Source: Antedon mediterranea (Eukaryota; Animalia; Echinodermata). Taken from it: a DNA stretch of 64,000 nt. The notes under the pieces were generated by a model. That model was not told the origin of the DNA. It saw nothing but the letters and a program-made list of their open reading frames with translations, and searched no databases. Positions 16,974 to 25,900 of this stretch are shown piece after piece. The stretch spans positions 15,429,742-15,493,741 of the forward strand of contig NC_092671.1 of NCBI RefSeq assembly GCF_964355755.1, written 5' to 3'. Each line of letters begins with the position of its first letter. Position 1 is the stretch's first letter. A program made the translations under genes and the position numbers.

Positions 16974-19900
16974 TTATTTCTTGCCACTTTTGGCCTTTCC
17001 TGACTTGCCCTTGTCCTTTCCTTTGCCCTTGGCTGTCTTAGCAGCTGGTTTCTTGCCCTTTCCCTCAGGCTGACTTATCTGAAATTAAACAAAGATTATG
17101 ATTAATCAAAGAAAGAAAATAGGCCTAGCATTGGTTGTATACCCCATGGATACTAAAGCCTGTTTTTCTGTCGACGTTATTCGACGCTATCGTCGTTGAT
17201 CTTTAACAGTTCAACGACGATCGTTTGAAAACAATCAATTTGAAATGACAACAATAGCGAGTACCCTTTCCTGTAAATCGTTAACATTTCAATGTTTACG
17301 TAAAAGATCGCTGATTATTGTTAACGATAGCGTCGACGTCGACAGGAAAACAGGCTTAAGGCCTATTAAAAAGCTGTACTTACTCCCAACTTCTTGTTCT
17401 TCAACTGCTGTTTCTTTTCAGTATTACGTATTTCAAGCAGCTTGGCAACACGTTTCTGAGTCTGAGCGTATGGGTTCAGTTTGAACATGACACGGACATT
17501 CTTCAACGGGTTCTTCTTGTGCACCTTGCGCTTGTTGGCGTTGCGGTTGGCTGGTCTCAACTGTTTCTTAATCTCGTCACTTCTCAGCAGACGGGTTAAA
17601 TCAGTGTTCACCATTTTTCCCATTGGAAGACTAAAGAAAATAATCAATTAGGTACCCTTGTAACCACTTGACATATAGTAACCACTTGATATATAGTAAC
17701 TCAACAACACTACTTTAATAAAGAAACATGCGAGATAAGAAATATACAGAGATCAGTACTTCTTGGTAAAAATCATGGTTATTCATAAACACGGACCAGA
17801 AGTTGAATCATCATATACTCTGCATATCTGTATTTTTTTAAACGTTAAAATTGCTTGGGTCTTGAAAAATCATTGTCATTTGCTATGAAATTTTGAGCTA
17901 TGTTTAAATACTGAATCAAATGTAGTGATTACATTAACACCAAACAAGAGGGAGATTACAAAATAGTCTTTGCGTTTGTTATCTTGTGAAAACTGCAAGT
18001 AGGATTTGAACCAAAAACCATGGGTAAAAAGGTATGGCAACTTACTTGTAGTTGGTCTTTTCAGTTGAAGATTTCTTGTATGTACCATAGATTTCATTCA
18101 ACTTGCGGAAAGCACTCTCAGTCCAAATACAGAACCGGCCAACATGACCACCAGGAGCAATCTTCATCAGATTCAACTTGTTTACATTCAAGAGAGTAAT
18201 ACCTGTACAGATTTAAATTTTTTTTATAATACATAAATCAGCCAACTTTTTTTCAAAATAAAGTACTGCACTTCAAAATATCATTTATGAAAAAAATAGT
18301 TTGACAGAAGTCAGTACTTCTTGGTAAAAATCATTGTTATTCATAAACACGGACCAGAAGTTGAATCATCATAAACTGTCAAATACAAAATAAAATGTCT
18401 TTATTCTTTACTCTAAACTTCACTCCCGAACCAGGAAGGCCATTTACTTACCAGGAATGTTACGGAATGACCTTGTGATGCCATTGTCTTGGGCGTAGAC
18501 AACCAGTGGACCTTGACGTTGAACATGACGACGGTTTCTAAGTTTACCTTTGCCGGCACGCATTCTCCTAGACTTGTAAACCTTGAAAATTAAGAATTTA
18601 CTATGGTTACAATCTATAAAAGTGTTATTTTATTAAAGTACATTTGGTGACTGGTGGTTGAACTTGAACCAATCCCAGACATTTTACATCATGTTATCTA
18701 ATGCTCTGTCTATACAAAAAAAGTGATGTGCCCAAATATGGTAGTGATATGACATCATCATGTCCATATATGGGGACATCAAGTTTGATAGTGTAGAGAG
18801 AGCTTAATTCACTATTATCTAAATATAACCTCAATGGTTTAAAAAAACAGAGATCAGTACTTCTTGGTAAAAATCATTGTTATTCATAAACACGGACCAG
18901 AAGTTGAATCATCATCTACTCTGTATAAAACTCTGAAATGTATCATTAGGTTTACCTTTTTGATGTCATCCCAAGCCTTGAATCTTTTCAAGAAGACTAC
19001 AGCTTCTTTAGTTTTTTTGTACTCTTGAACTTTGTCGCTTACAACAAGAGGTACTTCAATGGTTTGCTCAATGCGATGACCTGAGTGAAAAATTAGCAAC
19101 AATTAACAAAACACTAGCTTATAGCATATGCTAGAAGTATTGTAAACAAGGAGAATTGGAATCAATCATTTATTACTTGTACAGAAATCAGTACTTCTTG
19201 GTAAAAATCATTGTTATTCATAAACACGGACCAGAAGTTGAATCATCATAAACTCTGTATAAATACTGTAATGAAATAATATCTTATTTTTCACATTCCT
19301 AGATTCTCCAAACAATGATGTCAAATATCTTACCCTTTGACATGATCAAAGCTGGGATAGCGGTGGCCGCTAATGCAGAGCACATGGCAAATCGTTTCTG
19401 GTTGGTGTTGGTGCGATGGTGCCAGCGACGCCATGTCTTAGTCGGTGCAAACATACGCCCACCACGACACATGTTTCCGAATGCACCCTGCCCAGATCTG
19501 TGCGTTCCACCACCTCGAACACGTGGGATTCTCGCAACAGCACGACCAGTACCCCAAGATTCAGCACTGGTCTGATGTCCTATAAAAAAACAATAACAAA
19601 TATTGCAGTCATTATTTTGGAGGCCATGATTAATTCATTTTAGAAAAGAGTAGAATTTCAATTAAAATATCTATTCTAAAACAAAACTAATCAAAATTGT
19701 TTTTTTTACTAGATCAGAACTTCCTGAATAACGTCACATGAAATCAGCAACACGGACCAGAAGTTGGCTCATCATTTCTATTCCATAATATTAATGTACA
19801 ATATATAGCATTAAGAGATTAAAAACTTGGTGTTACCTGCTTTGACACTGACAGCATAAGCCTGACGGGTATTCTTACGCATGTTACTGCTAACAAAGTT

Positions 19901-22988: not shown

Positions 22989-25900
22989 ATGAAAAGTCTT
23001 GTCAAGGAACATTTAAATTTTAAGAACATTTATGAAAGGTTAGTAATAATTATAAATATAGTATGTCAATACAGCCCCGTGGTCAATATTAAAATAATAT
23101 GCTTTACACGTTTACGTTGCGCTAATAATTAATATAAATTATTATAAATCTCATTTTTCTTAGACTAGACAAGAAAGAAGATGTTAGTGCAAAATACCTT
23201 AATTTTCAACTTGAAGTTATATCATGGAATGATCTTCCAAGTTCTGAGGTCATTCCAACTTCTGTAAAATCGCAAGATAAGCTTATATTAGCATACAGTG
23301 TAAAGGTAACAAAATGCAATATAATCACTCATTAAACAGTATTATTTTATCTTATTAATTTCTACAGTATATAAAAAAATATAAAAGAGACTATAATTAT
23401 ATAAACTAATAAATTCCAATGATATACTGAAATTTAATCGATCAATTTGAAATGATAAAGATGAGGAAATATGTGAGATTTGAACTTGGAATCTTCTGCT
23501 TGCTATGCAGATGTCCCAACCATTAGACCACTGTGGCTAAATATACAATGCCAAGGACAAACAAATGCAATATCAAAAAGCTATTGCCTGTAAGGTGTCT
23601 CTCCAACGTTGTATAATGTACTAACTATAGTATGTGCCACTGTTATTCCAACTAAACTTGAAGACATGATTCTAGTCACTAGAACTGGGTATTAATTTGT
23701 ATTTTAGGTTGTTTGGCACAGTTTCATAATATGTAAAGTTTGTTTTGAATTTGTTTAGTCTTACAGAAAAGATTGTTTTGAAGACTCTTATACAAATGAT
23801 GATGACTCATACTACAATGGAGATGACACATGCAATGTAGATGAAACATGCAATGGAAATGCATGCCTTGGAAACAGCATCCTTGATGATACTGCTGACA
23901 AAGATGAGATTCGATATCCTGGTGTCAGTCTGGGAAAAGCAAGGTATTCCATTTTATAACATGGGTTCAAGGATTTAGCTAATCAGACGCGCTGAAATGA
24001 GTCAGTTGTGCGCTCTTTATTTTTTCACGATCTTGCACAGGAGTGTAAAAAGTGTGCAGCAAAAAAATCATAAGAGCACTCTGTGTGTATATGCAGAATA
24101 CTACCGATCGCGCTAGGCTAGCTGCACGATTTAGTACGAACGTCTGCACCGCGGTCCCATTGCACCCTCAAATTCAAGCTTGTTTTAGGTCTACCTGTTT
24201 GAACACTAACGAGCATTGAAAGGTCTTAATTGCACAAAACAGATATTGTACAACAAAAGAATCATTGATTGGGATAAATCTTACACTACCTACCTATCTG
24301 GTCCATACATACAGTATTTGCATTATTTTTTTTAAACATTCTCAAGAAAATTTCAACTGAAAAGAACAGAATTTTTGTTTTGTTTACAATTTACATTATT
24401 TTATACAATCAAATGTAAGAATTCTATTTTAAAACCAAAATTATACCTAATGTTTATTTTATATCTTTAGGCAATGTGGACCAAGGACTACCAATAGTAA
24501 ATTAATCACTGTCTTATATAGGTGGTAATCCCCCTAATACAGGGGATCATTTGTGAAGCAGTTCACCAGGGTAACCCCCCCTACTAATCTCGAATGATGA
24601 ACTGGGTTCTTTGAAGTGCACACAGGTTATGTGGACCTACAGTTTATAGTCCTTATCCGAAAAGACTTGTTCCACCACCAGAACTAGGAGTGAGTCGGCC
24701 TCCAATCCTTGTCGATATTGTTGGCTCTTTAGGTACAGTAAACAGCGCCCCTGCTTTAACCGCTCGGCCATTTGACTCTCTTTTTGATTGTCAATAAGTC
24801 CCTGGTGACAATTGTTTGTAATTTTGTACTGTATGTTTTAGGAGCCTCTTGTCATTATTTTGTTTATGGAAAGATGAGTCAACATTGCCTACAACCCCAT
24901 TGTGGGTGATGTGTGACGGCAATGCATCGGAACATGTATTCCTCATGGGATGTTCATGGCAAAAAAATGAAGTACACAATCATGTAATTAACACCTACAC
25001 AATATCCTGCCAAGGTAAATTCTACCGTTTATTCTGTCATTCAAATGATTAAAATAAACTATATACGAGCAGAATAATAACAATCTGTAATAATAATTAA
25101 TAATCTGTCTGCACATGTAGTACAGTATATTAATGAAACTTTTAATGGTTATTTTATAATGAAATATCTGAAATACATTGTGTAGTTTTTCATTTTAACC
25201 TAAGCTAGCAAATTCAGCTACTATCTAGCATGCTGGGATAATTGAGAAATAATACAATATTGATTTCTGCTACTGCAGGTCCATACCACAATAAGAGTGA
25301 GATTCCCTCTGTCCAACATCTTATGGAAGGGTTTTGCCAATCCGAAATTGTGAACGTAAGTCAGAAATCCATTTTTTATTTAATGAAGTTTGCTTTTCTT
25401 TTTGTTACTTTGATATTTTACTTAATACTTTTTAATATTTTATTCACACTGCCGCTGCATTTTTTTCTTAAATTCTCCTAGAAAAAAATAAACACAAACA
25501 TTGTTGCTTCACATGAATCATGTAGCAAAATTATTCCAGATTTAAATATGAATAGTAATTGTTTTATAATGTAGTACATTAAGTGCATGTTTGAGTAGCC
25601 ATTATATAAATATATTTATCAAATTTTAGGAATACATAGAGCTTATAATCTATGCTAAAACTTCATGAAACCAAAGTTCATTGCATCCAATAAGCAAAAC
25701 CTGATAATGTGAACTTCTGTCCTTAATGGGTTAATAACATTGCAAAGTGCGATAGAGATAAACATTCTAATTATAGTCAATTGAAAGATGTCAACAAATG
25801 TATAAATCAAATATCATTGCCTTCGTTACAGTACATTTACACTTAAAGTAGAATATCACCTTTTTGTGCGAAAATATGCTTAAAATAAGAGTGTATCAAT

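Follow-up and report, generated by a model that had tools for sequence, protein, structure and literature searches.

A divergent RPL4–Zwilch gene pair in the crinoid Antedon mediterranea and its conservation among deuterostomes

The RPL4 and Zwilch genes and the spacer between them

We analysed a 64,000-nucleotide stretch of the genome of the crinoid Antedon mediterranea (contig NC_092671.1, positions 15,429,742 to 15,493,741; hereafter the window), a eukaryotic sequence of ~33% G+C in which the gene for ribosomal protein RPL4 (uL4) stands head to head with a homologue of the kinetochore gene Zwilch, which encodes a subunit of the RZZ complex. RPL4 lies on the minus strand with a coding span of 16974 to 22048, the lower coordinate being the last base of the stop codon. 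Its eight exons are joined across introns that all follow the GT-AG rule and encode a product of 396 aa, of which the N-terminal 143 aa match the Pfam domain Ribosomal_L4 (PF00573). The protein is 94% identical to RPL4 of a second crinoid, Anneissia japonica, and 77% identical to that of the sea urchin Strongylocentrotus purpuratus, with animal RPL4 proteins ranging from 94% down to 69% identity over 86–100% of the length. Exon 1, whose last base is 22046, codes for the ATG only, and the intron begins straight after it (ATG/gtaaag).

Zwilch occupies the plus strand with a coding span of 22989 to 46745, divided into 14 coding exons with GT-AG introns throughout (Table 1). Its spliced product of 596 aa is an exact match to the NCBI entry 'protein zwilch homolog [Antedon mediterranea]' and carries the Pfam domain Zwilch (PF09817) at 1e-44; a full HMMER search returned 519 relatives at E ≤ 0.001. 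Zwilch appeared as a single gene per species in the lists seen, which were not tested systematically for paralogy. The first coding exon opens with MKSLVKEHLNFKNIYER... and is 74% identical at the DNA level to the first coding exon in Anneissia.

The two genes are transcribed away from each other, with their start codons 940 bp apart. The spacer (22049–22988) contained no Rfam family and no open reading frame (ORF) longer than 33 aa, and we conclude that no gene lies between RPL4 and Zwilch. The identities of the two genes and their head-to-head layout had been proposed in the original prediction, together with first exons at 22046 and 22989, about 0.9 kb apart; the Pfam domains and the NCBI match bear out the former, and the positions were exact. 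The same holds for the CTAG/CCTAGG palindromic repeat it described in the spacer, which measured 372 bp. CTAG occurs 29 times in the spacer compared to 2.7 expected, and Tandem Repeats Finder resolved the block into units of CTAGC, CTAGGC and CTA. The CCAAT, TGACGT and TATA-like motifs that had been pointed out are also present, but their significance for a promoter did not stand. Judged by the window's own frequencies, CCAAT (2 vs 1.9 expected) and TGACGT (1 vs 0.5 expected) occur at chance frequency in the spacer, and we rejected them as promoter evidence for this reason. TATA-like motifs were more numerous (9 vs 2.7 expected) in what is very AT-rich DNA, and TATAAA reflects this AT-richness.

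We place a putative transcription start site (TSS) of RPL4 at ~22110, because CTTTTTGGCC is conserved and unique and because the pyrimidine stretch begins at a matching distance from the ATG in five loci. The distance from this stretch to the ATG is 62 nt in Antedon, 63 nt in Anneissia, 65 nt in the hemichordate Ptychodera, 66 nt in the hemichordate Saccoglossus and ~70 nt in zebrafish, and exon 1 ends right after the ATG at all five of these loci. On the RPL4 strand the Antedon sequence reads CCAATACGTTTACGTCACTGATTCTCTACAGTGGATCTGC/CTTTTTGGCCCACGAGTT...AAATCAAAATG/gtaaag. Within it, CTTTTTGGC and CCACGAGTT form islands of identity with the Anneissia locus, and the surrounding sequence has diverged. 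RPL4 would thus have a start of its own, of the TCT or 5' terminal oligopyrimidine (TOP) type. A TCT initiator, in which a C is followed by a pyrimidine run, is used by ribosomal protein genes of flies and humans (PMC5737516). The likeness to this core promoter (Parry et al. 2010, cited in PMC5737516) consists of CTTTTT, a C with its pyrimidine run, at the expected RPL4 start, conserved between the two crinoids and matched by similar runs in hemichordates and zebrafish. What sets the leaders of these last two apart is a GCCAT (YY1-type) core just downstream, which Antedon does not have, and the Antedon start itself is predicted from sequence. A 'TATA box' candidate, TATATAAA, was rejected as the element positioning the start; it lies 17 nt upstream of the RPL4 ATG, which is too close, and is not conserved in Anneissia.

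By the operational definition used here, two genes form a bidirectional pair if they diverge and their TSSs are separated by under 1 kb. A start at 22110 would leave at most 878 bp to the Zwilch ATG, and the two TSSs would then be within 1000 bp of each other unless Zwilch starts inside RPL4.

Just inside RPL4, a 239-bp tandem duplication has copied a stretch that comprises the ATG and 5' splice site together with the last 10 nt of the 5' untranslated region (UTR) and the first part of intron 1. A second ATG/gt consequently stands at 21809–21807 within intron 1, and use of this inner donor would produce an RPL4 mRNA with a short upstream ORF. The Anneissia locus has one copy only, and the duplication is therefore recent.

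Gene order around RPL4 and Zwilch in other animals

For other species we retrieved the gene neighbourhood of RPL4 or Zwilch and took as the spacer the distance between annotated ends of the coding sequences (CDS). A divergent RPL4–Zwilch pair was found in Anneissia, in Saccoglossus kowalevskii and Ptychodera flava and in Danio rerio (Table 1), and at all four loci Pfam Zwilch and Ribosomal_L4 domains were detected on the adjoining genes. That human has the same arrangement, as had been stated in the original prediction, was confirmed from the literature: RL4_HUMAN and ZWILC_HUMAN are divergent with a 247-bp spacer (Davila Lopez et al. 2010, PLoS One 5:e10654, Table S5 row 225; PMC2871058). The same row gives the pair as common to seven vertebrates (human, chicken, mouse, Xenopus and three fishes), and no invertebrate among the 64 species of that study had it (PMC2871058). 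Our literature search on RPL4 and ZWILCH synteny or a bidirectional promoter found only locus lists from genome-wide association studies.

The arrangement is shown in six species, and each of the three deuterostome phyla sampled (Echinodermata, Hemichordata and Chordata) has the genes adjacent in this orientation. The pair probably dates to the deuterostome ancestor; a single gain in that ancestor or earlier, followed by a single loss in echinoids, is the most economical account. An adjacency tabulated for vertebrates only is hereby pushed back to the ancestor of deuterostomes. The Antedon pair adds a new case, useful for phylogeny, to a conserved head-to-head arrangement that was in the tables already, and it does not amount to evidence that the genes share a promoter. 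Taken on its own, it is one more conserved bidirectional pair among hundreds and brings no new mechanism.

Outside these species the neighbours of RPL4 were different. In S. purpuratus the 10 kb on either side of Zwilch contained no RPL4, whose own divergent neighbour is a GDSL-lipase gene. Zwilch was not beside RPL4 in any of the four spiralians sampled, and we did not meet the pair outside deuterostomes. In the brachiopod Lingula, the 10 kb upstream of RPL4 contained no called gene, no hit to a Zwilch hidden Markov model (HMM) and no tblastn hit. The RPL4 neighbour in the nemertean Tubulanus is an unrelated gene of 1388 aa. Haliotis has RPL4 head to head with a gamma-tubulin-complex (GCP) gene of 657 aa (L010 1–9046, minus strand) across a spacer of 954 bp. 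In the chiton, RPL4 is head to head with an unannotated gene of 663 aa (L007 1–9456, minus strand) across 544 bp, and neither tblastn nor our home-built Zwilch HMM found Zwilch upstream of RPL4. This HMM also missed the 5' part of the annotated Saccoglossus Zwilch, and its negative alone is weak; the state of the chiton is settled because its RPL4 neighbour is homologous to the Haliotis GCP gene. GCP is a different conserved divergent partner of RPL4 in two molluscs, and it is likewise a mitotic gene. The upstream genes of RPL4 in the urchin and the nemertean both gave GDSL-lipase Pfam hits and had no tblastx similarity to each other, and we treat the resemblance as coincidence rather than homology. 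In the scorpion Centruroides the RPL4 hit is an intronless ORF of 1194 bp (L011 10001–11194), possibly a retrocopy, around which no neighbour was called over 10 kb; it is uninformative for gene order.

The gene-order comparison that had been suggested as a check thus recovered the pair in the second crinoid, two hemichordates and zebrafish, and did not recover it in the sea urchin or the four spiralians. The very old constraint that had been proposed was overstated: it is neither absolute, the pair being broken in S. purpuratus, nor shown to be pan-metazoan, Zwilch being absent from beside RPL4 in Lingula, the chiton, Haliotis and the nemertean.

Microsynteny with human 15q22.31, also part of the original prediction, is confined to the pair itself. 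On its 3' side, Antedon RPL4 is tail to tail with a dynein heavy chain gene of which the window contains the 3' part (1–15558, plus strand; AAA_8, AAA_9, Dynein_heavy and Dynein_C domains) and not with SNAPC5 or MAP2K1, and nothing recognisable follows Zwilch in the window. The vertebrate pair, listed in Table S5 as having a potential bidirectional promoter, consists of the same orthologues in 5'-5' orientation with no gene between them. Zebrafish RPL4 exon 1 ends after the ATG as in Antedon, and U18 small nucleolar RNAs (snoRNAs) reside in the RPL4 introns. The vertebrate spacer is shorter (human 247 bp, zebrafish 578 bp, vs 940 bp in Antedon with its 372-bp palindromic repeat block), the flanking gene is a 395-aa protein kinase in zebrafish compared to dynein heavy chain in Antedon, and the published table has the pair in vertebrates only. 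A better-known case is the 5'-5' microsyntenic pair HSPE1–HSPD1 (Irimia et al. 2012, Genome Res 22:2356), which likewise joins unrelated genes in a deeply conserved, divergent arrangement with a short spacer. HSPE1 and HSPD1 are functionally linked, have a proven shared promoter and reach beyond animals, whereas RPL4–Zwilch has no known functional link, its conservation as seen here stays within deuterostomes, and its promoter sharing is unproven.

Putative promoters in the spacer and persistence of the pair

Alignment of the Antedon and Anneissia spacers showed little conservation outside the RPL4 start. Upstream of this start the similarity was weak and AT-rich only, and upstream of the Zwilch ATG no conservation was seen. 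As a marker of cell-cycle promoters we used the strict pattern SSCGG-N4-TTYGAA, a GC-rich cell-cycle-dependent element (CDE) four nt upstream of a TTYGAA cell cycle genes homology region (CHR), and searched 427 kb on both strands. Of only four hits, two (GGCGG-N4-TTCGAA), one per hemichordate species, lie at the 5' end of Zwilch; the remaining two were in the sea-urchin RPL4 locus and in the window (Table 1). Human ZWILCH is among 268 genes repressed via p53-p21-DREAM/RB (PMC6753476). Taken together, this points to a Zwilch promoter of the cell-cycle type, different in kind from that of RPL4. The co-regulation of RPL4 and Zwilch that had been proposed is therefore doubtful, given the DREAM/RB repression of human ZWILCH and the CDE-CHR-like element of hemichordates.

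In Saccoglossus the CDE-CHR-like element falls within the annotated Zwilch start (MVHCGAKAETSNSG...; L003 9594–9656, minus strand). Translation from another in-frame ATG, at 9596 (MEIFREIRNILE...), would give a closer likeness to the Zwilch N-terminus of the other species, and the annotated protein may accordingly begin 20 codons too early.

The palindromic octamer TAGGCCTA occurs 15 times in the window compared to 0.49 expected, with 8 of the 15 copies inside the block at 22541–22912. The Anneissia locus has 19 copies compared to 0.67 expected, six of which lie in its RPL4–Zwilch spacer (L002 1810–2193). The octamer is thus ~30-fold over-represented in both crinoid loci. In both, the cluster starts ~400 bp from the inferred RPL4 start, and it is the only large cluster per 63-kb locus. 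Exact copies were also seen near the RPL4 ATG of Lingula and Tubulanus and on either side of the Zwilch start of S. purpuratus (Table 1), and none in the hemichordate, zebrafish and mollusc loci. These positions across phyla are a post hoc observation on few loci. In the literature, TAGGCCTA turned up only in primers, and no known factor was found for it. The crinoid cluster may be a microsatellite-like sequence that has persisted, or it may be a promoter-associated palindromic element.

The reading we lean towards, with moderate confidence, is that the Antedon pair is the crinoid orthologue of the vertebrate RPL4–ZWILCH divergent pair, inherited from the last common deuterostome ancestor, with separate core promoters, and kept mainly through intolerance of breakpoints. 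Each gene would have its own core promoter, of the TCT/5'TOP type for RPL4 at ~22110 and of the cell-cycle type for Zwilch, with the Zwilch start somewhere in the remaining ~880 bp of the spacer. The ancestral spacer would have been short, ~250–600 bp as in hemichordates and vertebrates, and both core promoters would therefore probably have been within one nucleosome-free region there. We believe that the pair was likely retained mainly because an essential gene with high expression would suffer promoter damage from nearly any breakpoint in so short a spacer, without any need for obligate co-regulation. The crinoid spacer would have grown later, to 0.94–1.8 kb, by the addition of AT-rich DNA and the TAGGCCTA palindrome block, with the genes staying together. 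Insertions into the spacer, repeats included, are indeed tolerated at 0.94 kb in Antedon and 1.8 kb in Anneissia.

Several observations weigh against this reading. The expanded crinoid spacer gives more room for breaks and the pair nevertheless persists, which a functional link would explain no less well than breakpoint intolerance. In S. purpuratus the pair is broken, with Zwilch at ~32.6 Mb and RPL4 at ~55.9 Mb of the same chromosome (AAGJ06000006.1), ~23 Mb apart; both genes are retained, and breakpoints are therefore not always lethal. The spacers of Antedon and Anneissia contained no strict CDE-CHR or E2F pattern in our pattern search. Upstream of the Zwilch ATG there are possible splice acceptors in both crinoids, the stronger candidate being that of Anneissia (ctttttctAG), and these would permit a non-coding Zwilch exon beside the RPL4 start and, with it, a genuinely shared promoter. 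Finally, the informative gene-order sample covered only two crinoids, one sea urchin, two hemichordates, vertebrates and four spiralians; a homology search with a 100-sequence Zwilch alignment returned only 5 proteins.

A genuinely shared bidirectional promoter with co-regulation was the claim of the original prediction. On this view Zwilch transcription would begin in a non-coding exon close beside the RPL4 start. The CTAG/TAGGCCTA block would then either fall within an intron or act as a regulatory module of both genes, which would be driven in proliferating cells by elements they have in common. The divergent orientation of a pair kept in three deuterostome phyla, a spacer of less than 1 kb in Antedon and 250–600 bp in hemichordates and vertebrates, and the survival of the pair through the crinoid spacer expansion all speak for it, as do the candidate acceptors that precede the Zwilch ATG by 27 nt in Antedon and by 20 nt in Anneissia and the enrichment for co-expression among conserved 5'-5' pairs with short spacers (PMC3514665). 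However, no shared motif was detected, with CCAAT, TGACGT and TATA at chance frequency, and what the two crinoids share is weak AT-rich similarity upstream of the RPL4 start and nothing just upstream of the Zwilch ATG. The expected regulation also differs, that of a TOP/TCT housekeeping gene vs a DREAM-type cell-cycle gene, and the pair proved dispensable in the sea urchin. With RPL4 having a putative TOP/TCT-type start of its own and the spacer varying from 0.94 kb to 1.8 kb between the crinoids, we regard a shared promoter as unlikely. A bolder reading, in which RPL4–Zwilch is a constrained deuterostome-wide unit and the TAGGCCTA cluster inserted in crinoids is a binding array for a palindrome-reading factor, serving as an insulator or a shared promoter element between TOP-type and cell-cycle promoters, seems to us more doubtful still; for this reading, the copies of the octamer near the RPL4 ATG of Lingula and Tubulanus and around the sea-urchin Zwilch start would hint at a promoter-proximal element of marine invertebrates that has not been described before.

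We give a similarly low probability to neutral retention, that is, to an ancestral adjacency that has not yet been broken, helped by the short spacer, with no selective or mechanistic link between the genes. S. purpuratus lost the linkage and neither gene, RPL4 has other divergent partners elsewhere (GCP in two molluscs, a GDSL-type gene in the urchin), and no further neighbour from 15q22.31 is conserved in Antedon, all of which agree with neutrality. Against it, vertebrates, hemichordates and crinoids have been separate for more than 500 million years and still keep the two genes adjacent in the same orientation, even across a 1.8-kb spacer. Deeply conserved 5'-5' pairs are also more frequent genome-wide than controls (PMC3514665). 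The readiness with which RPL4 gains different divergent neighbours across lineages shows that new head-to-head partners arise. On that basis, the crinoid or hemichordate adjacency of RPL4 and Zwilch could have originated separately from the vertebrate one. We consider such convergence very improbable, since the same partner in the same orientation with no intervening gene is found in all three deuterostome phyla sampled, and three independent origins are far less parsimonious than one origin and one echinoid loss.

The locus provides a natural experiment on the persistence of head-to-head pairs: spacer lengths run from 247 bp to 1.8 kb, the urchin broke the pair, and molluscs pair RPL4 with a different mitotic gene.

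Further elements of the locus

Table 1. Positions of the genes, spacer segments and sequence elements described in the text. Coordinates are those of the window unless preceded by an L number, which denotes the locus of the species named.
Feature	Position	Strand	Remark
RPL4 exons	22048-22046, 20014-19837, 19579-19334, 19080-18956, 18581-18452, 18202-18046, 17630-17384, 17078-16974	-	spliced model
RPL4 exon 1, putative 62-nt 5'UTR + ATG	22046..22110	-	5' end inferred from conservation
CTTTTTGGCC, candidate TCT/5'TOP initiator	22101..22110	-	single copy in 64-kb window; identical block in Anneissia
Tandem duplication, 239 bp	21581-21819 / 21820-22058		2 copies, 98% identical; repeat search
Zwilch coding exons 1-7	22989-23038, 23164-23305, 23759-23943, 24842-25014, 25279-25355, 26149-26307, 26567-26638	+	exact spliced mapping
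Zwilch coding exons 8-14	27539-27682, 28784-28957, 29174-29330, 29742-29904, 35371-35466, 39473-39582, 46657-46745	+	exact spliced mapping
Spacer part 1	92 bp adjoining RPL4		GC 41%
Spacer part 2	400 bp		GC 21%
Spacer part 3, CTAG-rich low-complexity block	22541..22912, 372 bp		CTAG-containing units; 8 exact TAGGCCTA; GC 50% vs ~21% in adjacent spacer DNA
Spacer part 4	76 bp before Zwilch ATG		GC 17%
Candidate 3' splice acceptor ttacAG/A	22960..22961, 27 nt upstream of Zwilch ATG	+	sequence only, speculative
Divergent RPL4–Zwilch, Anneissia japonica	spacer 1836 bp		annotated locus
Divergent RPL4–Zwilch, Saccoglossus kowalevskii	spacer 344 bp		annotated locus
Divergent RPL4–Zwilch, Ptychodera flava	spacer 447 bp		annotated locus
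Divergent RPL4–Zwilch, Danio rerio	spacer 578 bp		annotated locus
CDE-N4-CHR, Saccoglossus	L003 9622-9636	-	Zwilch 5' end
CDE-N4-CHR, Ptychodera	L012 9621-9635	-	Zwilch 5' end
CDE-N4-CHR, sea urchin	L008 9641-9655	+	~350 bp upstream of RPL4
CDE-N4-CHR, Antedon	20562-20576	+	within probable transposon, RPL4 intron 1
TAGGCCTA near Lingula RPL4 ATG	-704, -533 (L006 9297, 9468)		exact octamer
TAGGCCTA near Tubulanus RPL4 ATG	-679, -471 (L009 9322, 9530)		exact octamer
TAGGCCTA around S. purpuratus Zwilch start	-430, +414 (L001 9571, 10414)		exact octamer
SNORD18 (U18 C/D snoRNA, RF00093)	19710..19780, RPL4 intron 2	-	Rfam 51.0 bits
SNORD18	19184..19254, RPL4 intron 3	-	Rfam 43.8 bits
SNORD18	18850..18920, RPL4 intron 4	-	Rfam 41.7 bits
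SNORD18	18307..18377, RPL4 intron 5	-	Rfam 42.1 bits
SNORD18	17749..17819, RPL4 intron 6	-	Rfam 44.2 bits

Antedon RPL4 hosts SNORD18 on the sense strand of five consecutive introns, with all five copies above the Rfam gathering threshold of 41 bits (Table 1). Alignment showed the C box ATGATGA, the guide GGTCCGTGTT and the D box CTGA to be invariant across four phyla. RPL4 introns elsewhere contain four copies in zebrafish (together with two SNORD16 and SNORA35), three in Saccoglossus and three in Lingula; none was found in the chiton RPL4 locus. The occurrence of U18 in RPL4 introns of Lingula as well as deuterostomes indicates that the relation between U18 and its host gene predates deuterostomes. 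Human SNORD18A-C belong to the same snoRNA family and likewise reside in RPL4 introns (snOPY, PMC4015994); Antedon differs in having five copies in five consecutive introns, and Rfam detected no SNORD16 in the window.

Intron 1 of RPL4 contains nested inverted-repeat elements. The outer one (20112–21408) has 54-nt arms that are 93% complementary and lie 1189 nt apart, and the inner one (20261–21117) has perfect 18-nt arms; both are probably non-autonomous DNA transposons. A small element in intron 7 (17153–17360) with 25-nt terminal inverted repeats resembles a miniature inverted-repeat transposable element (MITE).

In the two hemichordate loci, the hexamer AGGCCT has 0 copies (L003, 35 kb; L012, 25 kb), compared to ~4–5 expected in each by a rough composition estimate. 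Between dynein exons of the window, positions 14039–14148 (plus strand) give a full-length match to 5S rRNA (55.8 bits, E 6e-9), possibly a dispersed 5S gene or else a repeat derived from 5S. Just downstream of Zwilch, at 47765–48303 on the minus strand, long open frames consist of a repeated KGSGYKGVRVQRGQGT-like unit with no Pfam match and are probably a tandem DNA repeat rather than a gene.

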